In this document: positions 1 through 11,988 of the stretch, piece after piece
Layout of the letters: each line of letters starts with the position of its first letter
How positions within the stretch are numbered: the stretch's first letter is position 1
Source: Escherichia coli
GTDB lineage: Bacteria > Pseudomonadota > Gammaproteobacteria > Enterobacterales > Enterobacteriaceae
Reading direction: 5' to 3' (one strand)
Assembly (NCBI RefSeq): GCF_041248615.1
Contig: NZ_CP158424.1
Length of the DNA: 11,988 nucleotides
Program-made: the position numbers and the translations under genes
The notes under the pieces: model-generated
The model's input: only the letters and a program-made list of their open reading frames with translations
Told to the model about the DNA's origin: nothing
Databases searched by the model: none

Positions 1-422
1 TACGCACTCAATTCCGGAGGGGGAGTGTAGGGAAGTGCCTGATTTATTTTATGTACGCGCAAAAATGAGATAGCTTTTATTAGATATCATCAGCCCTGTC
101 TGCATCAGTCAGCTCCTTACAGCGTCAGGAGTACTGATGAAGGGGGGAACGTTCCTGCGTTTTTGCAAAGGCAATCCGGCTAGAGGCTTTACTACGCAGA
201 AACATTCCGGACAACTTTTTACCCCAGTGTAACCTGTAGATCAACCAGATTTTGTTGCAGTAAAAATACAGTGGTTTCGCATTTGTAATATTTGTCACAA
301 AAATAACATCAATATGTTGGTTTTCTGTTGATAAATGGTTTGGTCGCTGATTATGATTTCCTTGTACTCCACAGGAGTACAGTCATGTGCATACTAAAAT
401 CCGTGTTTTCGATAAAATTAAG

Positions 423-449
423 GCCGTGATACAGAATCACGGCTTTTTT
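423..449 (+). terminator. Putative rho-independent terminator
   Basis: Hairpin GCCGTGAT (423-430) / loop acaga / ATCACGGC (436-443) followed by T6 (444-449). Read directly from sequence. Confidence 0.5.
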
Positions 450-617
450 CTTGCCTGAAAGGATCATTTACGCTAGAAGAGTTATGAGCGCGTCTCTGGT
501 GTTTGTTGCAGGGATAATATCTAATATGGGGCACCGGAAACGCGCTCTCCCTTCGTATACAGAATGCCCATTAATTTCTTCTTCCTGATTTTCCAGACAT
601 ATATTCTTGTGTAAATT

Positions 618-826: not shown

Positions 827-851
827 CCCTCTTCAGTAGAGGGTTTTTTTT
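827..851 (+). terminator. Rho-independent terminator
   Basis: Stem CCCTCT (827-832) / loop tcagt / AGAGGG (838-843) followed by T8 (844-851). Confidence 0.6.
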
Positions 852-995
852 ATCTGGTACGCCGTAAAACCCGGTCCTTCAGGGCGTAGAGGATGTCAAA
901 AATTTCTTCGAAAGGTAATACCCGATATCCCGAAGGAATAACAACGAAGAGGATACAGATAAAGACATAATACGGATAAGTCATCAGGAGGAAGT

Positions 996-1133
996 ATGTC
1001 TTGGGTGAAACTGACGGAAGCAGAACGTAAGTGTAGTTGCGATGATTATGCTGCACAGGTTGCACAGTTAAAGTTGTCCGGCAGAGATAAATTGCCACGG
1101 GAAGTTAGAGAAAAGTGCGGGAAAATGTCTTAA
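996..1133 (+). CDS. Candidate small protein (45 aa), unknown function
   Basis: ATG 996 preceded by AGGAGG (986-991); translates MSWVKLTEAERKCSCDDYAAQVAQLKLSGRDKLPREVREKCGKMS, stop TAA 1131-1133. Below the ORF-track length cutoff. A 34-codon ORF (1136-1240) follows 2 nt later in another frame. No homolog recognised. Confidence 0.3.
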   Translation: MSWVKLTEAERKCSCDDYAAQVAQLKLSGRDKLPREVREKCGKMS

Positions 1134-1394
1134 GAATGATTCTGGAAGAACGAAAAGTAAGAAGCGCAAAGGCTATGAGGGCAAAAGAGTATCGTGCCGC
1201 AGCGAATACTTTTACCTGGCAGCCTGTACGGCGCAGGTGAATAGACATTCCCCTGACTCATCCTGCTCCCCTTGGCGGCGAAGGGGATTAATCCCTATCC
1301 TGTAACTTCTATTTTGTGGAATCGAAAACAGCCGAAAATTGTGAAAAAAAACCGTTTCAGTCGTCTCAGTAAGGAAATTCGCTTGTGATTCACC

Positions 1395-2745: not shown

Positions 2746-4602
2746 ATGCCGGGGTTTAATTACGGTGGGTATGGTGACGGTACTGGCTGGAGTTCTGAAA
2801 GTGGTGGTCCAGCTCCAGGCGGTGGTATGCATGGAAATAGTGGAGGCCAGCGCGGAGATAACGCAAACAGTAGCAATTCTGTGAGTCAGCAGATTTCTGC
2901 CATTCAGAATGATCAGAAACTTAAACAGAAAGTGGTGAATATGCTGATTGCTGCGAGAAAAATGAATCCTGAAGCAAAAATGATTCTGGGAAGTATTGCT
3001 CCTTCTGGTGTTATGCAGGTCACCATTGAGGGGGTAACCTCCACTCAGGCCAGGCAGCTTGGTTTGGGAGGGCTGGTCATGGGATATAACGCTTCTGGTG
3101 TTATTGGGGCTGTGGGCGAAATAGACACCGGTCACCGCCTTAATGCATCAGGAGCAAGTACTCCCGGAAGCGAAACTTCTGTGGAGAGTTTTGTGAACGG
3201 ACAGAAACCAGCCGGAGAATGGCATGCTGTGGCGAAGGACAGCTGGACAGGGGCTGGTCCAGTGAATGTAGGGCTGGTTAATAACGCCATCAAAAGTGTC
3301 CGGATTATCAAAAAAGGCTATGTGACGGGCGTTCTCACGCCAGAAGAGGTGATGAATAAAGCAGAGTACAAAGCAATGCGGCAGGCTTTCGATTCCCTTC
3401 CACTGGCAAAACAGGGAGAGGCTGTCAGACAGATTGTTGCTGCTTGGAGTCTGGCATATCAGGATTTTCCGGTAAATCTGAAAAAAGAGATGGGGCGTGT
3501 CACTGAACGGATTGTTGATGCTATTAACCTGGCGCTCATTCTTAATCAGACAGAGTCCCGTTTGTCGGAATCACAAAAGAATGTTGATGTAGCGAACCAG
3601 ATTATCAGTGATACAGTAAAAGCTATTAATGATGTAAATAAGAAAATAGCAGAAAAACGAAATCAGCAGGTATCACTGACTGATTTGATGAATAAAAAAC
3701 AAAAAGAGGTCGAAGATCTTAAAAAGATATTCAAAAATCACTCTTATCACCGTATTCGTGATGCCCAGAGGGAATATGATGATGCCCGAAATAAATATGC
3801 TTTACTGGCCAGTGATATTAATGCGCTGCAGGCACAGGTTTCCGGACTGACGGCAAGGAAACAGCAGGCAGAACAGAACAAGGCAGCAGCAGAAAAAGCA
3901 AAGGCAGATGCAGCGGCGAAAGCTGCAGCAGAAAAAGCGGCTGCTGAAGCGAAAGCAAAGGCTGAAGCTGAAAAAGCCAGAAAGGAAGCAGAGGAAAAAG
4001 CAAATGACGAGAAGGCTGTTCTGACAAAAGCCAGTGAAATTATCATCAGTGTTGGTGATAAGGCTGGGGAGTATCTGGGTGATAAATATAAAGTTCTTTC
4101 TCGTGAGATAGCAGATAATATCAAAAACTTTCAGGGCAAAACGATTCGTAGTTATGATGAGGCGATGGCTTCTGTCAATAAACTGATGGCTAATCCTGAT
4201 CTTAAAATTAATGCCGCCGACAGGGATGCAATTGTGAATGCTTGGAAAGCATTTGATGCAGAGGATATGGGGAATAAGTTTGCCGCGCTGGGTAAGACGT
4301 TTAAAGCCGCAGATTATATGATGAAGGCAAACAACGTCCGGGAGAAGAGTATCGAGGGGTATCAGACCGGAAACTGGGGGCCGCTGATGCTGGAGATTGA
4401 GTCCTGGGTATTGAGTGGTATTGCTTCTGCTGTGGCGCTATCATTTTTCTCAGTCGCTGTTGGTTCATTATTTATTACAGCGGGCGTGTCTGTAACGGCT
4501 GTGGGACTTATGGGCATTATTTTTGCTGGCTTTATCGGTGCGCTGATTGATGATGATTTTGTTGATAAGTTAAATAACGAAATTATTCGCCCTGCGTATT
4601 AA
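2746..4602 (+). CDS. Pore-forming colicin, colicin A/U/Y family (618 aa)
   Basis: Track ORF 2704-4602 begins at a TTG; best start is ATG 2746 (GAGG 2735-2738, 7-nt spacer). N-terminus MPGFNYGGYGDGTGWSSE plus Gly-rich segment matches the colicin A translocation-domain start as I recall it. Ala/Lys/Glu-rich helical linker. C-terminal about 200 aa (NFQGKTIRSYDEAMAS ... NWGPLMLEIESWVLSGIAS ... hydrophobic helical hairpin ... NNEIIRPAY) matches the colicin A-subgroup pore-forming domain. Length is close to colicin U/Y. Confidence 0.93.
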   Translation: MPGFNYGGYGDGTGWSSESGGPAPGGGMHGNSGGQRGDNANSSNSVSQQISAIQNDQKLKQKVVNMLIAARKMNPEAKMILGSIAPSGVMQVTIEGVTSTQARQLGLGGLVMGYNASGVIGAVGEIDTGHRLNASGASTPGSETSVESFVNGQKPAGEWHAVAKDSWTGAGPVNVGLVNNAIKSVRIIKKGYVTGVLTPEEVMNKAEYKAMRQAFDSLPLAKQGEAVRQIVAAWSLAYQDFPVNLKKEMGRVTERIVDAINLALILNQTESRLSESQKNVDVANQIISDTVKAINDVNKKIAEKRNQQVSLTDLMNKKQKEVEDLKKIFKNHSYHRIRDAQREYDDARNKYALLASDINALQAQVSGLTARKQQAEQNKAAAEKAKADAAAKAAAEKAAAEAKAKAEAEKARKEAEEKANDEKAVLTKASEIIISVGDKAGEYLGDKYKVLSREIADNIKNFQGKTIRSYDEAMASVNKLMANPDLKINAADRDAIVNAWKAFDAEDMGNKFAALGKTFKAADYMMKANNVREKSIEGYQTGNWGPLMLEIESWVLSGIASAVALSFFSVAVGSLFITAGVSVTAVGLMGIIFAGFIGALIDDDFVDKLNNEIIRPAY

Positions 4603-5273: not shown

Positions 5274-5414
5274 ATGAAAATGATATTATCAGGAGGGATG
5301 CTTGTCTTGATGGCTTTGCTATCAGGCTGCCAGGCTAATTATATTCGCGATGTTCAGGGAGGGACCGTCGCACCATCCTCCTCTTCTGAACTGACGGGAA
5401 TCGCGGTTCAGTAG
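5274..5414 (+). CDS. Colicin lysis (bacteriocin release) lipoprotein, 46 aa
   Basis: Not in the ORF track (below length cutoff). ATG 5274 with GAGGGG 3 nt upstream. [46 protein letters not shown]: signal peptide, lipobox LSGC, and mature start [14 protein letters not shown] nearly identical to the colicin A lysis protein as recalled. Confidence 0.88.
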
Positions 5415-5422
5415 AAAAGATC

Positions 5423-5449
5423 AAAGGATCTTCTTGAGATCCTTTTTTT
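5423..5449 (+). terminator. Rho-independent terminator after the lysis gene
   Basis: AAAGGATCT (5423-5431) / loop tcttg / AGATCCTTT (5437-5445) with T-run 5443-5449. Same element is found upstream of the RNA II promoter in pMB1-type replicons. Confidence 0.7.
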
Positions 5450-5462
5450 CTGCGCGTAATCT
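5434..5462 (+). promoter_or_regulatory. RNA II (replication primer) promoter
   Basis: TTGAGA (5434-5439), 17-bp spacer, TAATCT (5457-5462); same sequence as the pMB1/ColE1 RNA II promoter. Confidence 0.75.
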
Positions 5463-5469
5463 GCTGCTT

Positions 5470-5579
5470 GCAAACAAAAAAACCACCGCTACCAACGGTG
5501 GTTTGTTTGCCGGATCAAGAGCTACCAACTCTTTTTCCGAAGGTAACTGGCTTGGAGGAGCACAGTCACCAAAACCTGT
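5470..5579 (-). ncRNA. RNAI: RNA I, antisense copy-number and incompatibility regulator
   Basis: Complement of the first about 110 nt of RNA II. Stem-loop 1 (AACCACCGCTACCAACGGTGGTT) is conserved with pMB1; distal stem-loop sequence (5553-5579) diverges. Ends are approximate. Confidence 0.8.
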
Positions 5580-5585
5580 CTTTTC

Positions 5586-5615
5586 AGTTTAGCCTTAACC
5601 GGCTCATAACTTCAA
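5586..5615 (-). promoter_or_regulatory. Putative RNA I promoter
   Basis: On the minus strand: TTGAAG (complement of 5610-5615), 18-bp spacer, TAAACT (complement of 5586-5591), placing the start near 5579. Same layout as the pMB1 RNA I promoter. Confidence 0.5.
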
Positions 5616-5989
5616 GACCAACTCCTCTAAATCAGTTACCAGTGGCTGCTGCCAGTGGCGCTTTGTCGTGTCTTACCGGGTTGGACTCAAGACGATAGTT
5701 ACCGGATAAGGCGCAGCGGTCGGGCTGAACGGGGGGTTCGTGCACACAGCCCAGCTTGGAGCGAACGACCTACACCGAACTGAGATACCAACAGCGTGAG
5801 CTATGAGAAAGCGCCACGCTTCCCGAAGGGAGAAAGGCGGACAGGTATCCGGTAAACGGCAGGGTCGGAACAGGAGAGCGCACGAGGGAGCTTCCAGGGG
5901 GAAACGCCTGGTATCTTTATAGTCCTGTCGGGTTTCGCCACCTCTGACTTGAGCGTCAATTTTTGTGATGCTCGTCAGGGGGGCGGAGC

Positions 5990-6005
5990 CTATGGAAAAA
6001 CGCCA
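5990..6005 (+). other. ori: Origin of replication (RNA-to-DNA transition point), ColE1 type
   Basis: TATGGAAAAACGCCAGC corresponds to the pMB1 primer cleavage and DNA start site. Exact nucleotide not determinable by eye. Confidence 0.65.
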
Positions 6006-6224
6006 GCGGCGCGGCCTTTCGTTGCCCTTTGCCTTTTTGCTCACATGTTCTTTCCGGCCTTATCCCCTGATTCTGTGGATAACCGTATTACTGCCTTTGA
6101 GTGAGCTGGCACCGCTCGCCGCAGCCGAACGACCGAGCGTAGCGAGTCAGTGAGCGAGGAAGCGGAAGAGCGTCGGAAGTTGCATTTTCTCCTTACGCAT
6201 CTGTGCGGCATTTCACATCGGCTA

Positions 6225-6330
6225 TGGTGCACTTTTCATACAATCCGCACTGATGCCGCATGACTAAGCCAGTATACACTCCGCTATCGCTACGTGACTG
6301 GGTCATGGCTGCGCCCCGACACCCGCTAAC
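6225..6330. other. oriT: bom / oriT region (origin of transfer for mobilisation)
   Basis: Near-identity to the pBR322 bom region as recalled (...TAAGCCAGTATACACTCCGCTATCGCTACGTGACTGGGTCATGGCTGCGCCCCGACACC...). Located between ori and rop as in ColE1. Nick site not assigned. Confidence 0.6.
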
Positions 6331-6414
6331 ACCCGCTGAAGCGCCCTGATGGGCTTGTCTGCTCCCGGCATCTGCTCACTGACAAACTGTGACCGTCTCC
6401 GGGAGCTGCATGTG

Positions 6415-6606
6415 TCAGAGGTTTTCACCGTCATCCCCGAAACGTGCGAGGCAACTGCGGTAAAGCTCATCGGCGTGGTCGTGAAGCGATTCACAGATGT
6501 CTGCCTGTTCATCCGCGTCCAGTTCGTTGAGCTTCTCCAGCAGCGTTAATGTCTGGCTTCTGATAAAGCGGGCCATGTTAAGGGCAGTTTTTTCCTGTTT
6601 AGTCAC
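6415..6606 (-). CDS. rop: Rop/Rom, RNA I-RNA II pairing modulator (63 aa)
   Basis: GTG start at 6606 with GGAGG upstream; VTKQEKTALNMARFIRSQTLTLLEKLNELDADEQADICESLHDHADELYRSCLARFGDDGENL is the ColE1/pBR322 Rop sequence as recalled. The track ORF extends further upstream without an initiator. Confidence 0.93.
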   Translation of the reverse strand: MTKQEKTALNMARFIRSQTLTLLEKLNELDADEQADICESLHDHADELYRSCLARFGDDGENL

Positions 6607-6637
6607 TGATGCCTCCGTGTAAGGGGGATTTCTGTTC

Positions 6638-6994
6638 ATGGGGGTAATGATACCGATGAAACGCGAGAGGATGCTCACGATACGGGTTACTGATGATGAA
6701 CATGCCCGGTTACTGGAACGCTGTGAGGGTAAACAACTGGCGGTATGGATGCGGCGGGTCTGCCTGGGTGAGCCGGTTGCCCGTTCCGGGAAGCTGCCGA
6801 CACTGGCACCGCCGTTACTGCGTCAGCTGGCCGCCATCGGGAATAACCTGAATCAGACAGCGAGGAAGGTGAACAGCGGGCAGTGGTCTTCCGGTGACCG
6901 GGTTCAGGTAGTGGCCGCACTGATGGCCATCGGGGAGGAGCTGCGCCGGCTGCGTCTGGCCGTCAGGGAACAGGGGGCGCGGGATGATAGTTAA
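6638..6994 (+). CDS. mbeC: Mobilisation protein MbeC/MobC (relaxosome accessory protein)
   Basis: MLTIRVTDDEHARLLERCEGKQLAVWMRR... matches the MobC N-terminal remnant retained in pBR322 and the ColE1 MbeC family. Divergent from rop. Start could be ATG 6638, 6656 or 6671; 6638 has the best SD spacing. Confidence 0.85.
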   Translation: MGVMIPMKRERMLTIRVTDDEHARLLERCEGKQLAVWMRRVCLGEPVARSGKLPTLAPPLLRQLAAIGNNLNQTARKVNSGQWSSGDRVQVVAALMAIGEELRRLRLAVREQGARDDS

Positions 6995-8549
6995 GTTTCA
7001 TGCCAGGGGAAAAGGTGGTGGCAGTGGTCCGGTTGATTACCTGCTGGGAAGGGAGCGTAACCGGGAAGGGGCAACGGTGCTTCAGGGTAATCCGGAAGAA
7101 GTCCGGGAACTCATCGATGCCACGCCATTTGCGAAGAAATACACGTCAGGTGTTCTGTCGTTCGCGGAGAAGGAGCTGCCGCCGGGAGGACGTGAAAAAG
7201 TGATGGCGAGCTTTGAGCGTGTACTGATGCCCGGTCTCGAAAAAAATCAGTACAGCATCCTGTGGGTGGAGCACCAGGACAAGGGACGGCTTGAGCTGAA
7301 TTTTGTCATTCCGAACATGGAGCTACAGAGCGGAAAACGCCTCCAGCCGTACTACGACCGGGCAGACAGGCCGAGAATTGATGCCTGGCAGACGCTGGTT
7401 AATCACCATTACGGGCTGCATGACCCCAACGCCCCGGAGAACCGCCGGACGCTGACTCTCCCTGATAACCTGCCGGAAACGAAACAGGCGCTTGCTGAGA
7501 GCGTCACACGCGGGATAGACGCTCTTTATCATGTCGGGGAGATAAAAGGCCGTCAGGATGTGATTCAGGCGCTCACAGAGGCGGGGCTTGAAGTGGTCAG
7601 AGTGACGCGAAGCAGCATCAGTATTGCAGACCCGAACGGCGGGAAGAATATCAGGCTGAAAGGAGCATTCTATGAGCAATCTTTTACAGACGGGCGCGGA
7701 GTTCGAGAAAAAGCTGAAAGAGAGAGCCGCATCTACAGAGAAAATGCTGAACGACGAGTTCAGGAAGCTCGAAGAATCTGTAAACAGGGAACTGACCTCA
7801 AACGAATCTTTAATCAGGAACGCTATCAACGCCCATACAGCAGCCCTGAAAGAACTTCTGGAGAGGTATCAGAAAACGACCGTCAGCACGATGGACACAC
7901 ACTGGCAAACCGTGCTGAAAATGAGCGTGAAACGCTGGCTGTGGCTGATTATCGTCTCAGTGCTGATGTTTGCCACGACCGGGAGTCTGCTGTGGTACCA
8001 GGGCATGAAGATAAACGCAAACATGAATATTCTCCGCGAGCAGAAAGAGAGTCTGGAGAAGCTGAACGCGAAGACATGGGGCGTGCGTTATCACGAGGAC
8101 AGCAACGGACGTTTTCTGGTGTTGCCGAAGGGGATGAAAGCCGAAACGCACTGGACGGAGGACAACGGCAAACTGAACGCAGTGAGACTGGTACAGGAGT
8201 GACAGAGCATGACGGAGCTGGAAAAACATTTGCTGAACGCCTTAGAGCAACTGCAACAGGACTATATGCAGCGGCTGAACGAATGGGAGAGCGCCTTCGT
8301 GGAATTGCAGAAGATGTTTTCGCTTACGCAACGGGACAACGCGATGCTGAACGAGCGGGTCATGCAGTTGAGTCAGCAGGTGCAGCACTTGAGCGAGCGG
8401 ACAGAACGCTTGAGCCAGTTATACAGCGAGAACAGGAGATAAGGGACGAACGGCTGATACAGGAACGCGAACATGAGTTATCCCTGGAGCGTGAGCGCCA
8501 TCTGGAAATACAGGAACGGACACTGGATGGCCCGTCGCTGGGATGGTAA
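6984..8549 (+). CDS. mbeA: Relaxase MbeA/MobA (ColE1-type, 521 aa)
   Basis: N-terminus MIVKFHARGKGGGSGPVDYLLG... is characteristic of ColE1-family relaxases; start overlaps the mbeC stop; C-terminal half is Arg/Glu-rich as in MbeA. Confidence 0.92.
   Translation: MIVKFHARGKGGGSGPVDYLLGRERNREGATVLQGNPEEVRELIDATPFAKKYTSGVLSFAEKELPPGGREKVMASFERVLMPGLEKNQYSILWVEHQDKGRLELNFVIPNMELQSGKRLQPYYDRADRPRIDAWQTLVNHHYGLHDPNAPENRRTLTLPDNLPETKQALAESVTRGIDALYHVGEIKGRQDVIQALTEAGLEVVRVTRSSISIADPNGGKNIRLKGAFYEQSFTDGRGVREKAERESRIYRENAERRVQEARRICKQGTDLKRIFNQERYQRPYSSPERTSGEVSENDRQHDGHTLANRAENERETLAVADYRLSADVCHDRESAVVPGHEDKRKHEYSPRAERESGEAEREDMGRALSRGQQRTFSGVAEGDESRNALDGGQRQTERSETGTGVTEHDGAGKTFAERLRATATGLYAAAERMGERLRGIAEDVFAYATGQRDAERAGHAVESAGAALERADRTLEPVIQREQEIRDERLIQEREHELSLERERHLEIQERTLDGPSLGW
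7672..8202 (+). CDS. mbeB: MbeB/MobB mobilisation protein, nested in an alternative frame of mbeA
   Basis: ATG 7672 with AGGAG upstream; 176 aa with a predicted TM segment (WLWLIIVSVLMFATTGSLLW). Nested arrangement matches ColE1 mbeB. Confidence 0.75.
   Translation: MSNLLQTGAEFEKKLKERAASTEKMLNDEFRKLEESVNRELTSNESLIRNAINAHTAALKELLERYQKTTVSTMDTHWQTVLKMSVKRWLWLIIVSVLMFATTGSLLWYQGMKINANMNILREQKESLEKLNAKTWGVRYHEDSNGRFLVLPKGMKAETHWTEDNGKLNAVRLVQE
8209..8442 (+). CDS. mbeD: MbeD/MobD (77 aa coiled-coil protein), nested within mbeA
   Basis: ATG 8209 with AGGAG 9 nt upstream; helical, Gln/Leu-rich sequence; position directly after mbeB as in ColE1. Confidence 0.7.
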   Translation: MTELEKHLLNALEQLQQDYMQRLNEWESAFVELQKMFSLTQRDNAMLNERVMQLSQQVQHLSERTERLSQLYSENRR

Positions 8550-8769
8550 CCAAAGACAGGCTAAAATGTTGTCAGCGCGTTTCCGGTGCATTTTTTTGGA
8601 TAATGGTTGGTTCGGGGCACCAGGAACGAGCTTCAGTCAGGCCTTGCTGAAAACACAGGAACGCGTTAAAACGCATACGGACGCGTTTCTGGCGGTCAAA
8701 AACCACGGGGTTAGTGTGGGTAGTGTGTATAGCAACAGGAGCCTGGAACGCGTTCCGCTTCTTCTGTAA
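8473..8769 (+). CDS. Hypothetical ORF overlapping the mbeA 3' end (possibly mbeE-like)
   Basis: ATG 8473 with AGGA 7 nt upstream; 98 aa; extends 220 bp beyond the mbeA stop. No recognisable motifs. Confidence 0.3.
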   Translation: MSYPWSVSAIWKYRNGHWMARRWDGNQRQAKMLSARFRCIFLDNGWFGAPGTSFSQALLKTQERVKTHTDAFLAVKNHGVSVGSVYSNRSLERVPLLL

Positions 8770-9498
8770 TAGACGCCAGAATGCGTTTAATGCTTCTTCT
8801 GATGGTATCAGAGAGGAGCAGCTTGAGTTATTCCTGTTGGCCACAGAGCGTAATTATCTCCTTTTCAGATCCACACGGGGATACGTCAGAGTAGGAACTG
8901 AGCAAGGATTACTGAAAGATACTTTTTGCCAGAAAAAAATCCTCATACATGATGAGGATAAAGTCTTAAAGGTCCATTCTATGGAGTGTCGGATTGAAAA
9001 ATTTCTCCGGATGATATCCTTCACAGTTTAAATGTGATTTCAACCATAAGTTTTTTATGGATTTTGTTAAATAAAAAAGAATTGAGTCGTGTTTCTGATA
9101 TGTCTTAATATAATAAGTGAACAGTTATAAAATAATTGTGTTATATTTATTGTGAGTTTGATGTTATGTTCTGCATAAATAACTGTAGTTTAGAATATTA
9201 TTCTTTTATATTTATAGCTGTGAGATGATAAATTATAAGTGTTCTTTGTGCTATAAAGAACCCCCCGTATAAGGGGGGGAAAGATGGGTTTACTTCTTTT
9301 TAGTCCATGCCCTGGTGAGCTACATGAAGCTCGACACTACAGTAAAAATTTGGCAGTTTTTTTGAACTTTACGCAAGCAATTTATTTACATTGTAAAGAA
9401 AACCCCCTCAATTTGCGTATTACCGTGAAGGAGATCGGTGAGTAACATCGATGGAGATCGGTTCGTGTCACTTTCACAGAACCGTTTTTAAATTACCT

Positions 9499-10248
9499 TC
9501 ACTGATCTCCTTCGGTCAACGGAGATTGTATTTTCCGCATTGATTCTCCTTTAAGTTCGATCTTGATACTGCCATGAACCAGTCGATCTAGGATGGCATC
9601 CGCATGTGTGGAGTCTCCGATCATTTTGTACCAGTTTTCCACCGGCAACTGGCTCACTACGATGATTGAGCCTCGTTGGTACATCAGATCCACTATTTCC
9701 AGCAGGTCGCTACGCTGTTCTGATGAGAGAGGTTCCAGCCCCCAGTCATCCAGAAGCAGCAGATCGCTATTATTCAGCCTGGTCAAAAGTTTGCTGTATC
9801 TTCCATCAGCATGCCCCTGATAGCACTGTTCCATCAGCGCTTTAAGGCGATAATAGTAGACCTTGTATCCCTGTCGGCAGGCATTATGACCAAGTGCACA
9901 TGCCAGGAACGTTTTACCGCTGCCGGTGGCCCCGGTCAGTAAAATATTTTGTTTCAGGGTTAACCAGTTTCCCTGACTGAGTGAACGGATGAGGGCCCTG
10001 TCCAGCCCTCTATTGTTACGATAATCCAGCTTTGATAACTCAGCATTAAGTCTGAACCGTGCATGTTTGATCAGACGCTCTGCCTTCCTGTTTTCACGGC
10101 AGGTTAGTTCTTCTGCTGTCAGTAATGACAGGCGTTCTTCGAAGCCCAGCTCCTGGTATGTGCCCGGCTGAGCAAGTTGCTTTTTAAGCGCATCACGGAA
10201 GCCGGTGAGTTTAAGTGCGGTCAGTTGTTCGTAAAGATGATTCATCAT
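9499..10248 (-). CDS. istB: IstB-like ATPase helper of IS21-family transposition (249 aa)
   Basis: Walker A motif GATGSGKT and Walker B-like LLLLDDWG; size and position directly downstream of istA. Confidence 0.92.
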   Translation of the reverse strand: MMNHLYEQLTALKLTGFRDALKKQLAQPGTYQELGFEERLSLLTAEELTCRENRKAERLIKHARFRLNAELSKLDYRNNRGLDRALIRSLSQGNWLTLKQNILLTGATGSGKTFLACALGHNACRQGYKVYYYRLKALMEQCYQGHADGRYSKLLTRLNNSDLLLLDDWGLEPLSSEQRSDLLEIVDLMYQRGSIIVVSQLPVENWYKMIGDSTHADAILDRLVHGSIKIELKGESMRKIQSPLTEGDQ

Positions 10249-10259
10249 TGGATCCCGTA

Positions 10260-11801
10260 TCAGTGGTAATACTCACTGCCGCGTACGTTTTCGTGTTCCA
10301 TCGTGGATAACAGATCTGGTTTTGGATCCTGAACAGGTTGTTTATCCAGACCTTTTTCCAGGATCGATTTAATACCTGACAGACGCCATACCTTTGTTTT
10401 CAGAGCTCTTGCACATGCTGCATTAAGTCTGGCTTTACTGTATTTTTTATGAAGGTTCAGGAGTCCAAGGCAGAAGCGATAGCTTTGTTCCGGATGTGGA
10501 CGAGAGTTCAGTATATGAAGCACATAACTATGAGTTTCACTGCCTATGTGCCCCGCCCATTCCAGAAGACGCTCTGGCGTCCAGGTGGCATGCTGTCGAT
10601 GAGCTTCAGGCATGTGCTCGTTGCGGGTACTGTAGCCATAAGTACGCTTGCGCGGGTGCACAGCAACCTCCTGCCCCTGATTGAAGAGTCTTACCAGTTC
10701 TCCGGAGATCCATGCTTCCAGTTGCTGGCCTAACAGCGAACATGGAACCGAGTAGTAATGTTTGTCGATTTCCACGTGGTAATCGGCATGAACTCTGACT
10801 TTCTTCACCAGGGTGTAACTGTAACTGGCTTCAGGAAGAGGCTTCAGTGCGGGTTTATCAAGCTGGATGAAGAGTTCTGCACGTGAATAACCCAACTTCT
10901 GCATTATTTTGTTATTCAGTCTTTCCAGCAACTCCCGAATGCGCTGATTAAGCGATGCAAGGCTGTAGAAGATCTCATGCCTGATTCGGGCCATGATCCA
11001 GCGTTCAACAACCTGAACGCCAACTTCAGCTTTGGCTTTATCTTTCGGTTTACGTGGCCGCGCAGGCAAAACTGCGACATTATAATGCTCAAGCATCTGC
11101 TGGTAGGTAGGGTTAACGTCAGGATCATACTTACATGCCCTGGATGTGGCGCTTTTCAGATTGTCCGGAACAACAAGTTCAGGAACGCCACCCAACCACT
11201 GGAAGCAGCGAACATGACTCATCACCCAGTCTTCAAGCTGCTGAGACCAGGTGGCCTCTGCCCATGTGTAACTTGATGCCCCGAGAACAGCTACGATGAC
11301 CTGAGCAGTTCTTATTTCTCCGGTCTCAGGGTCGGTAACGCCAACGGTAGGTCCACAGTAATCAACGAAAAGTTTTTCGCCAGCTTTATGTACCTGACGC
11401 ATTGATGGTGAAGTGGTTTTGAGCCATTCACGGTACATCCGGCAGTAATGGTTATAGCTGTAAAAACCGCCTGGATTACGCTCACAGTATTCTTCCCAGA
11501 GTAGCTGCAGCGTCACGCATTTATTACGCAGTTCCCGGTGTACTGTAGCCCAGTCAGGCAGAGAGTGCTTCTTCATCTTAACCTGGGTCTGAAGGAACGC
11601 ATGTTTTAGTTTTGTATCATCCCATCCTGTAGGTAAGGGCCACTGCTTTATGCCAAGTTGAGCCGCCCGATTAGCATATCTGGATACAACGGAAGGGGAG
11701 ATTGCAAGACTACGACCAATTTGTCGATGGCTGAGTCCAACACCGTATTTAAGCCTAAGAATTTCTTTAAGTTTTCTCATAGAAATTGGAACTGTTGGCA
11801 T
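10260..11801 (-). CDS. istA: IstA transposase, IS21 family (513 aa)
   Basis: N-terminal HTH (LKEILRLKYGVGLSHRQIGRSLAISPSVVSRY) followed by a long catalytic region; AGGA 5 nt upstream of ATG 11801; 11-bp gap to istB. Confidence 0.92.
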   Translation of the reverse strand: MPTVPISMRKLKEILRLKYGVGLSHRQIGRSLAISPSVVSRYANRAAQLGIKQWPLPTGWDDTKLKHAFLQTQVKMKKHSLPDWATVHRELRNKCVTLQLLWEEYCERNPGGFYSYNHYCRMYREWLKTTSPSMRQVHKAGEKLFVDYCGPTVGVTDPETGEIRTAQVIVAVLGASSYTWAEATWSQQLEDWVMSHVRCFQWLGGVPELVVPDNLKSATSRACKYDPDVNPTYQQMLEHYNVAVLPARPRKPKDKAKAEVGVQVVERWIMARIRHEIFYSLASLNQRIRELLERLNNKIMQKLGYSRAELFIQLDKPALKPLPEASYSYTLVKKVRVHADYHVEIDKHYYSVPCSLLGQQLEAWISGELVRLFNQGQEVAVHPRKRTYGYSTRNEHMPEAHRQHATWTPERLLEWAGHIGSETHSYVLHILNSRPHPEQSYRFCLGLLNLHKKYSKARLNAACARALKTKVWRLSGIKSILEKGLDKQPVQDPKPDLLSTMEHENVRGSEYYH

Positions 11802-11988
11802 AGGTATCCTTTACCGGAATGGCAAAAGATACAGATCAACACACCTGTGAAGTTCCAATAACATTGATGGAGATCACTGAATAACAAAATGAGTCAAAAG
11901 TGATCTCCATCGATGTTATTCAGCGATCTGTTCAAATGTTATTACCCGATCTCGATGGAAGTTATTGAGTGATCTCCTTTCATGAAAA

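Follow-up and report, generated by a model that had tools for sequence, protein, structure and literature searches.

Positions 6225 to 8549 of the Escherichia coli plasmid p14408_3 (NZ_LT599828.1) very probably form a complete ColE1-type (MOBP5/HEN) mobilization module on a colicin R plasmid, with no further gene in positions 8553 to 8790. The window, which is the whole stretch of 11,988 nucleotides that we analyzed, is this entire plasmid rotated by 569 bp. p14408_3 is a ColE1-type colicin R plasmid: its replicon is that of ColE1 (RNAI, 66.9 bits, the sole RNA family at gathering score in an RNA-family scan), and its parts follow the order known from ColE1, namely, oriT/bom, rop on the minus strand, mbeC, and mbeA, with mbeB and mbeD nested in the +1 frame of mbeA. 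The module itself is already known as the classic ColE1 mob region. A preliminary description of this DNA had proposed that all of these mobilization parts are present, and this is borne out by a Pfam or NCBIfam match for each gene and by the alignment of oriT with that of ColE1. Gene content, motifs, and homology were observed directly, and the features are as follows.

6225 to 6330 (approximately), minus strand: oriT (bom), ColE1 type, from alignment with ColE1 (L003) and two relatives
6415 to 6606, minus strand: rop (rom), 63 aa, GTG start, Shine-Dalgarno GGAGG; Pfam PF01815 Rop, 7.6e-38
6607 to 6670, no strand: rop-mbeC divergent control region, near-invariant in 4 plasmids
6647 to 6994, plus strand: mbeC, MobC-family ribbon-helix-helix relaxosome accessory; Pfam MobC, 1.9e-12; NikA-like, 3e-10
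6984 to 8549, plus strand: mbeA, MOBP5/HEN relaxase, 521 aa; NCBIfam NF047848 relax_MbeA_E1, Pfam Relaxase
7672 to 8202, plus strand: mbeB, 176 aa, inside mbeA in the +1 frame; Pfam PF04837 MbeB_N, positions 1 to 52 of 52, 2.7e-18
8209 to 8442, plus strand: mbeD, 77 aa, mobilization/entry-exclusion protein, inside mbeA in the +1 frame; Pfam PF04899 MbeD_MobD, 4e-35
8473 to 8769, plus strand: chance open reading frame (ORF) of 98 codons, not a gene; not conserved, no family match
8573 to 8632, plus strand: cer-like inverted-repeat unit 1, 16-bp stem and loop of ~27 nt, decayed copy; from its fold and an alignment with cer inverted repeats
8682 to 8754, plus strand: cer-like inverted-repeat unit 2, where an acquired module joins; from arm pairing and a pattern match

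The relaxase gene requires comment, because RefSeq records mbeA as two “incomplete” pseudogene pieces (window positions 6984 to 7827 and 8187 to 8549), lists no mbeD, and annotates the sister plasmid in the same way. Taken at face value, these records would mean that the module is defective and that the plasmid is moved only with a relaxase supplied in trans, or never. We consider this very improbable. The mbeA frame is open for 521 codons, and its product scores 893.8 bits against NF047848 (cutoff, 500), covering profile positions 1 to 496 of 497, and 29.4 bits against Pfam PF03432 (Relaxase; cutoff, 24.6). It carries the catalytic Tyr19 (context GPVDYLLGRE) and the H97-x6-E104-x-N106 motif (HQDKGRLELN, residues 97 to 106). 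In MOBP5/HEN relaxases, HEN motif III (HQD-x4-ELNF) replaces the three-histidine motif (PMC9282650). The alignment with ColE1 MbeA (77% identity) is free of frame breaks and has a single difference in the first 60 residues (N36 versus I36), and only 7 of 522 positions differ from the MbeA of pEC332_05 (515 identical), which RefSeq accepts as intact. The gap between the two RefSeq pieces is exactly the fast-evolving middle of the gene that is overlapped by mbeB. Since the NCBI MbeA model is matched over its full length and both Tyr19 and His97/Glu104/Asn106 are retained, the split is an annotation artifact. The same artifact probably hides MbeA in many plasmid records, since most of the >2000 that contain the module list no relaxase; 1896 of these >2000 records are typed as mobilizable.

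Both nested genes lie in another frame of mbeA and match the MbeB_N and MbeD families. MbeB is 53% identical to ColE1 MbeB from residue 1 onward, and RefSeq starts the gene 14 codons later than position 7672. MbeD scores 118.8 bits against NCBIfam NF033829 (plas_excl_MbeD; cutoff, 60) and is unannotated in the current RefSeq record; its start codon is ATG, whereas ColE1 uses GTG.

ColE1 (NC_001371) has the same gene order, orientation, and overlaps as p14408_3, and its DNA is 88% identical over window positions 5325 to 8552. The N- and C-terminal thirds of the two MbeA proteins are ~95% identical, with the same Y19, HEN motif, and oriT core, but the middle third is only ~25% identical; this, together with the 53% identity of MbeB, indicates that p14408_3 carries a different mbeB allele. 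Downstream, the two plasmids diverge: the mbeA stop of ColE1 leads almost directly into cer and exc2, whereas in p14408_3 a 140-bp remnant resembling cer lies in between, along with a 2-kb module and an insertion sequence (IS). In pMB1/pBR322, rop, bom, and the opening codons of an mbeC homologue, located upstream of rop, match window positions 6225 to 6700 in sequence and arrangement; pBR322 lacks the mob genes. The plasmids pSNC3-Kan and pEC34B have the same mobC-mobA/BD operon type and the same ColE-type oriT, and there too homology ends right after the mobA stop; their cargo differs (Tn602), and the annotated mobC start corresponds to the ATG at 6647 (PMC9282650).

The backbone of p14408_3, together with the gene-free 2-kb module that separates mbeA from cer, recurs in pSMS35_8 (NC_010485), in a family of 8.9-kb plasmids from poultry E. 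coli, and in pLH10-b-1-D. pLH10-b-1-D (NZ_CP100534) is p14408_3 without the IS, at 99.99 to 100% identity. pSMS35_8 lacks ISEc12 and has a colicin E1-like operon, and its mbeA, an allele of the ColE1 type, is intact according to RefSeq. IncK2/Z plasmids are often coresident with the small module-bearing plasmids in poultry E. coli strains.

Rop (RefSeq WP_000165985.1) is identical to ColE1 Rop. The preliminary description placed the divergent starts of rop and mbeC only about 31 bp apart; the tight arrangement is real and of the standard ColE1 type, but the distance was understated. The ATG at 6638, judged from the alignment, is unlikely to be the mbeC start. It is out of frame in ColE1, where a G run is 1 nt shorter, and the conserved in-frame starts (6647, 6656, and 6671) lie further on, so that the gap is 40 to 64 bp (63 bp in the RefSeq annotation of ColE1). 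MbeC would accordingly comprise 115 aa (ATG 6647), 112 aa (6656), or 107 aa (6671, the RefSeq choice), and the equivalent of the 115-aa form was used for pSNC3-Kan (PMC9282650). Within the 118-aa ORF, a NikA-like domain (PF21983, residues 8 to 77) and a MobC domain (PF05713, residues 61 to 105) provide the ribbon-helix-helix region and the MobC motif, and the gene lies directly upstream of mbeA, the start of which overlaps its end by 11 nt. The profile searches suggested earlier for a MOB-P5/HEN relaxase and MobC thus both found their targets, in the NF047848 MbeA model and Pfam MobC.

The rop-mbeC control region contains a single small conserved hairpin (CCTCC-GTGTAA-GGGGG, 6612 to 6627), which is terminator-like. 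A scan of positions 6150 to 7100 returned no sigma-70 consensus promoter at its threshold. It is reasonable to infer that the rop and mbeC promoters overlap coding sequence, as had been proposed, and rop would be transcribed divergently from the 40- to 64-bp gap, exactly the arrangement of ColE1.

The oriT lies between the replication origin (RNAI) and the 3′ end of rop. In the alignment with ColE1 and two relatives, its columns average 95% identity, and the nic core has invariant flanks. The nic-core octamer, TAAGCCAG at 6265 to 6272, reads CTGGCTTA on the minus strand, and the three bases just 3′ of the core are unlike those of ColE1 (CTTAGTC here versus CTTAACC). By the precedent of ColE1/pBR322, the nick would fall within CTGG/CTTA on the minus strand. 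The nicked strand is described as the complement of the rop-sense orientation, which supports a minus-strand nick (PMC9282650).

By homology with ColE1, the ribbon-helix-helix protein MbeC would bind oriT and assist MbeA, which would nick the minus strand at the CTGG/CTTA core (6265 to 6272) by means of Tyr19 and the His-Glu-Asn metal site. MbeA would then pilot the nicked strand into the recipient, a coresident conjugative plasmid supplying the type IV secretion system; the origin and colicin side would enter first and the mob genes last. MbeB and MbeD, translated from the +1 frame within mbeA, would act as relaxosome and entry-exclusion accessories. The earlier suggestion that a conjugative helper should mobilize the plasmid holds at the sequence level, given the full gene set, the catalytic residues, and the ColE1-like oriT. 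The sister plasmid is typed as mobilizable/MOBP by MOB-suite, ColE1 is mobilized by IncF, IncP, IncI, and IncW plasmids (PMC9282650), and in experiments IncP and F transfer genes have mobilized closely related mobC-mobA/BD plasmids (PMC9282650). We infer that p14408_3 would likewise be mobilized in a helper-dependent manner.

The preliminary description also drew attention to a further ORF of 98 codons overlapping the end of mbeA. The ORF exists (8473 to 8769), but its reading as a possible gene finds no support, and the conservation check that had been suggested came out negative: direct comparison shows that the ORF is not conserved. In ColE1 its counterpart meets a TAG after 4 codons, and in the relatives L006 and L007 it is frameshifted to 65 aa. 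Its database homologues, 27 in number, are all confined to Escherichia, Shigella, and Salmonella; they range from 61 to 122 aa, change frame internally, and stop at differing places. Among 260 plasmid copies searched by tblastn, most required 2 to 3 pieces and none of these carried an annotation. Two homology breakpoints (8552 and 8692) fall within the ORF, the final third of which is in DNA with another origin, and it matched no protein family in Pfam or NCBIfam. An alternative hypothesis is that it is a real fifth mobilization gene, comparable to the “mobE” mentioned downstream of mobA in pEC34B (PMC9282650); it shares its frame with mbeB and mbeD, and older RefSeq versions annotated it as the hypothetical protein WP_136710329.1, which the current version has dropped. 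Set against the stops, frame changes, and fragmented copies described above, this hypothesis has very little probability, and a literature search on “mbeE” found only unrelated papers. We instead read the sequence as a chance ORF over leftover cer-like repeats; the ORF is probably a by-product of a 1-nt deletion plus the junction with the acquired module.

An imperfect inverted repeat had been proposed between 8681 to 8696 and 8774 to 8790. That pairing failed our test (13-mer arms, 2 mismatches), but the left arm does pair, in that 8681 to 8693 matches 8741 to 8753 as part of unit 2. Three inverted-repeat pairs were found in 8550 to 8900, versus 0.31 expected, a number reached in 5 of 200 shuffles; folded as a whole, 8660 to 8800 was no better than shuffles (z = −1.6). 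Unit 1 can be aligned with the inverted repeats of genuine cer sites, and the segment in which it lies (8553 to 8692) is common to one subgroup of ColE1-like plasmids. Unit 2 sits at the junction between homology to L006 to L009, which stops at 8692, and homology to IncK2/Z plasmids, which begins at ~8680. The cer likeness of the units comes from a 53%-identity alignment and a pattern derived after viewing the sequences, and both units (8573 to 8632 and 8682 to 8754) resemble the inverted-repeat part of cer only. A search for a XerCD core (≤3 mismatches) had its sole window match at 1513 to 1542, the core of the true cer site; 8553 to 8790 thus lacks the XerC-spacer-XerD core that stands beside the accessory inverted repeat in cer-type sites, and we rejected a cer site in 8553 to 8800.

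Could these units nonetheless be functional, either as a 3′ stem-loop that ends or stabilizes the mbe mRNA or as auxiliary recombination sites of the Xer/ArgR/PepA type? In relatives, the unit adjacent to mbeA is well preserved and folds very stably (−35.5 kcal/mol, z = −5.95, in the intact L006 copy), differences between copies are mostly G-U compatible on the plus strand, which is the mbe mRNA strand (a pair-by-pair comparison of two copies' stems), and 8553 to 8692 recurs directly after mbeA in a subgroup of the 821 matching plasmids. The copy in p14408_3, however, is decayed (−23.2 kcal/mol, z = −2.1), unit 1 is not followed by a U tract, ColE1 lacks the segment, and no XerCD core accompanies the units. 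On balance, we regard a function for these units as conceivable but rather unlikely. Our preferred reading is that 8553 to 8790 holds degenerate cer-like units without a XerCD core, probably recombination leftovers near the multimer-resolution site, and that these units mark the place at which the 2-kb accessory module was exchanged into the plasmid. It has been proposed that ColE1 plasmids recombine at oriT and cer (PMC8683028). Among 100,044 species genomes, the hairpin unit was found in only two short contigs of rhizobial assemblies, which we suspect of being contamination by an E. coli plasmid or a vector.

The gene-free module of ~2 kb between mbeA and cer occupies window positions 8693 to 9413 and 7 to 1336 and is interrupted by ISEc12. 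It is common to IncK2/Z conjugative plasmids (~79% identity, in mosaic blocks). No protein family was found for the ORFs at 8572 to 8844 (minus strand), 8714 to 9031, and 850 to 1098 (minus strand) or for an 81-aa small protein, and in a comparison with the IncK2/Z copy no ORF was preserved and none had an excess of third-position changes. The module contains several cer-like hairpins and a candidate small RNA (sRNA) of ~90 nt (362 to 453) with an invariant single-stranded core and a terminator stem with a compensatory change. A search elsewhere in E. coli found no homologues of this candidate outside the same 46 plasmids, and in the module a sensitive RNA-family scan yielded just two matches, both at chance level. 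It is improbable, in our estimate, that the module is a functional noncoding cassette rather than debris, possibly linking small mobilizable plasmids to their helper; such a link might operate, for example, via sRNA cross talk or via cointegrate formation and resolution.

Two other candidates were considered but not adopted. A phage origin of the module would rest on a single 55-nt match beside stx1 in Stx phages, which is probably IS related. A second oriT at 1267 to 1302 (an inverted repeat plus CCTATCCTG) has spacing unlike that of R64/RP4-type sites and is unconserved outside the plasmid family; for these reasons, we keep it as a weak oriT lead only.

In itself, the module is of small significance, and the neighboring gene-free module is the only part that might merit further work. 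In annotations, the ORF that follows mbeA ought not to be propagated as a gene, and the RefSeq “pseudogene” label on the relaxase should not be read as loss of function. On its gene set and ColE1-like oriT, p14408_3 should be counted among the mobilizable colicin R plasmids.

The plasmid is of the ColE1 type. Its sequence is identical to NZ_LT599828.1 (p14408_3 of E. coli NRZ14408; 11,988 bp), a 100% full-length megablast match to the region under study; the start point is shifted by 569 bp relative to that record. The sister plasmid pLH10-b-1-D (9,400 bp) is 99.99 to 100% identical to it, and the insertion sequence (IS) is absent there. RefSeq annotates a colicin R operon (cra, cri, crl), exc1 and exc2, and an IS21-family element. 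From 5325 to 8552, the DNA is 88% identical to that of ColE1, in which the gene order is the same: rop on the minus strand, followed by mbeC and by mbeA with mbeB and mbeD inside it.

Features from RNAI to mbeD, with strand and profile matches.
5474-5577 (-): RNAI; Rfam, 66.9 bits
6415-6606 (-): rop, GTG start; Pfam Rop, 7.6e-38
ending at 6994 (+): mbeC ORF; Pfam MobC and NikA-like matches
6984-8549 (+): mbeA, 521-aa ORF; Pfam Relaxase match
7672-8202 (+): mbeB; Pfam MbeB_N match, from profile position 1
8209-8442 (+): mbeD; Pfam MbeD_MobD, 4e-35

All of the parts listed in the preliminary description (oriT, rop, mbeC, mbeA, and the nested mbeB and mbeD) were found using Pfam and NCBI models, a frame check, and an oriT alignment, and the relaxase and MobC families were both matched by ORFs of the plasmid. 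The NCBI MbeA model scored 893.8 bits (cutoff, 500) over profile positions 1 to 496 of 497, and the MbeD model scored 118.8 bits (cutoff, 60). Relative to mbeA, both mbeB and mbeD are in frame +1. When aligned with ColE1 and two relatives, the oriT region had a mean column identity of 95%; the nic-core octamer TAAGCCAG (complement of CTGGCTTA) is located at 6265-6272.

RefSeq presents a different picture of the relaxase. On NZ_LT599828.1, positions 6415-7980 (6984-8549 here) are annotated as two “incomplete” pseudogene pieces of mbeA, mbeD is unannotated, and mbeB begins 14 codons late. The mbeA frame is nevertheless open for 521 codons. Its product is 77% identical to ColE1 MbeA (517 aa) with a single 4-residue gap, retains Tyr19 and the His97-x6-Glu104-x-Asn106 motif, and differs at only 7 of 522 aligned positions from MbeA of plasmid pEC332_05, which RefSeq accepts as intact. 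Because of these four features, we regard the pseudogene split as an annotation artifact. The middle of MbeA (about residues 270 to 405), where identity to ColE1 is about one-quarter, falls between the two RefSeq pieces. This divergent stretch is overlapped by mbeB, the product of which is 53% identical to ColE1 MbeB; a different mbeB allele is therefore present here, and the relaxase linker changed along with it. The artifact may be widespread in other records: among the megablast matches listed, 29 of 30 had MbeB, MobC, MbeD, and Rop listed for the matching stretch, with the relaxase absent.

The starts of rop and mbeC are close and divergent, as first described, but the proposed distance of 31 bp does not hold. 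That value rests on an mbeC start at ATG 6638; in ColE1, the G run after this ATG is one base shorter, which places it out of frame with mbeC, whereas the in-frame ATGs at 6647, 6656, and 6671 are kept in all four plasmids compared. A gap of 40 to 64 bp follows from these starts. RefSeq chose 6671 (107 aa), and the authors of pSNC3-Kan chose the equivalent of 6647 (115 aa) (PMC9282650); the NikA-like Pfam match starts at residue 8 of the long mbeC ORF. Both strands of 6150-7100 were negative for sigma-70-like sites in a consensus scan. Since the gap is too short for two separate promoters, it is a fair inference that the rop and mbeC promoters overlap the neighboring gene or each other. This tight layout is not peculiar to the plasmid but is the normal ColE1 arrangement, with an annotated gap of 63 bp in ColE1 itself.

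The further 98-aa ORF described earlier, at 8473-8769, does exist, but it failed the conservation check. In ColE1, its frame meets a TAG after four codons, and in two close relatives (L006 and L007) the frame is changed by one additional G, which leaves an ORF of 65 aa whose tail is different. In a search of 5.8 billion proteins, just 27 clusters were recovered; their members (61 to 122 aa) came exclusively from Escherichia, Shigella, or Salmonella, without domains and with names that were all “hypothetical” or plainly wrong; when aligned, these homologues show internal frame switches and differing end points. By tblastn, the region was found in 260 plasmids, mostly in two or three pieces, with nothing annotated. 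The ORF spans two homology breakpoints, at 8552 and 8692: about 800 plasmids are homologous up to 8552, just beyond the mbeA stop, and a subgroup continues to 8692, while at least 80% of an 8400-8900 query was covered in only 16 records. The former RefSeq hypothetical protein for this ORF, WP_136710329.1, has since been removed. These comparisons indicate that the ORF is spurious and not a gene.

The inverted repeats reported at 8681-8696 and 8774-8790 are real, although they were mispaired: the left arm is part of a second unit, in which its best partner is 8741-8753. Similar units occur nearby and beyond.

Inverted-repeat units and the cer core.
8573-8632: long hairpin (first unit), inside segment 8553-8692
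489-546: further unit, z = -4.2
about 619-701: further unit, z = -4.6
1513-1542: cer XerC/XerD core GGTGCGTATAATTAAGGGATTATGGTAAAT, one mismatch versus ColE1, next to the exc2 3' end

When aligned, the units are similar to the inverted repeat that immediately precedes the XerCD core of authentic cer sites. A pattern built from them matches both the orphan units and the true cer repeats of L007 and ColE1 (L003; 3830-3903, core at 3909). Because the pattern is post hoc, its chance expectation of zero calls for caution. No XerCD core lies beside the orphan units, the sole core in the window being that adjoining exc2, and pEC332_05 (5,714 bp, comprising ori, rop, mob, and the segment described below) has no recognizable cer core. 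The first hairpin is very stable in relatives (-35.5 kcal/mol, z = -5.95 in L006); three changes have degraded the copy here (-23.2 kcal/mol, z = -2.1). The best explanation of the repeats is that they are cer-like remnants, which would have been left by recombination at or near cer. This reading agrees with the literature, in which recombination of ColE1 plasmids has been proposed to take place at oriT and cer, the sites on either side of the rop-relaxase block (PMC8683028). The first unit may still be functional, in the form of a 3' structural element in the mbe mRNA. Among species-representative genomes, the hairpin pattern occurred only in a Bradyrhizobium and a Rhizobium assembly (L019 and L020), on contigs of 620 and 2,096 bp that may represent contamination with vector or E. 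coli plasmid sequence.

From 8692 to the true cer extend about 2.05 kb that are absent in ColE1 and most relatives and hold no annotated gene in any record. The segment, which occupies 8693-9413 and 7-1336, is interrupted by an IS.

IS and candidate RNA within the segment.
9414-11988 plus 1-6: ISEc12, IS21 family (istA, istB), 2,581 bp, TGCGTATT ends
362-453 (+): candidate small RNA (sRNA), about 90 nt (7611-7702 in L002)

ISEc12 inserted into the loop of a GC-rich hairpin, CCCCCTCAATTCCGGAGGGGG, duplicating 7 bp of the target (CTCAATT, at 9407-9413 and at 7-13). About 1.5 kb of the segment is 79% identical to IncK2/Z conjugative plasmid DNA between trbC and pemIK/nikB, with debris of IS3 and IS256 on both sides of it there. 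Conservation is mosaic, with near-identical blocks of 70 to 100 bp alternating with unalignable stretches; neither an ORF preserved between the two lineages nor a coding substitution pattern was found in it, and terminator-like hairpins are overrepresented (9 versus 2.0 ± 1.3 expected). The segment is confined to plasmids; of 5,426 complete E. coli genomes, 36 have it, and most of these are from poultry. Small-plasmid and IncK2/Z copies coexist in at least six strains (LH10-b-1, 135, GF60, GF43, PKF11, and PKF4), far above independent assortment (each version in about 23 of 5,426 genomes), with shared ancestry and niche uncontrolled. The candidate sRNA (fold z = -3.96) combines a promoter-like site, TTGATA-18-TATGAT, with a 5' hairpin and a single-stranded core that does not differ between the lineages, and its intrinsic terminator shows a compensatory C-G to U-A change in a comparison of only two sequence lineages. 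Rfam gave no match, and homologues were confined to the same 46 plasmids. We offer the segment, including this putative sRNA, only as a lead.

Three smaller observations concern the same DNA. A small gene at 996-1240 (+) has a strong ribosome-binding site but is split here by a frameshift into 45 aa followed by a 41-aa ORF; its intact version, the 81-aa basic protein WP_045148228.1, is found in IncK2/Z and some small ColE1-like plasmids and has no family match. The stretch 1267-1302 (+) combines a 10-nt inverted repeat (TCCCCTTGGC / GCGAAGGGGA) with CCTATCCTG, the nic core of the RP4 type, 15 nt after the repeat. It differs in spacing from R64/RP4 sites and is limited to this plasmid family; as a second, orphan oriT, it is only a weak candidate. 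A 55-nt stretch (849-903) is 89% identical to a sequence that lies immediately 5' of stx1A in Stx1-converting phages; the stretch coincides with a transposase fragment marked by RefSeq in pSMS35_8 and is probably IS derived.

MOBP5/HEN relaxases are generally associated with ColE1-like plasmids (PMC8683028), and MOB-suite typing of the sister plasmid, via PLSDB, gave mobilizable/MOBP. Related mobC-mobA/BD plasmids were mobilized by IncP and F transfer genes (PMC9282650), and ColE1 is mobilizable by IncF, IncP, IncI, and IncW plasmids, as cited in the same study. The mobilization module is a known and ordinary one of the ColE1 type and appears to be intact, and we infer that the plasmid would be mobilizable.
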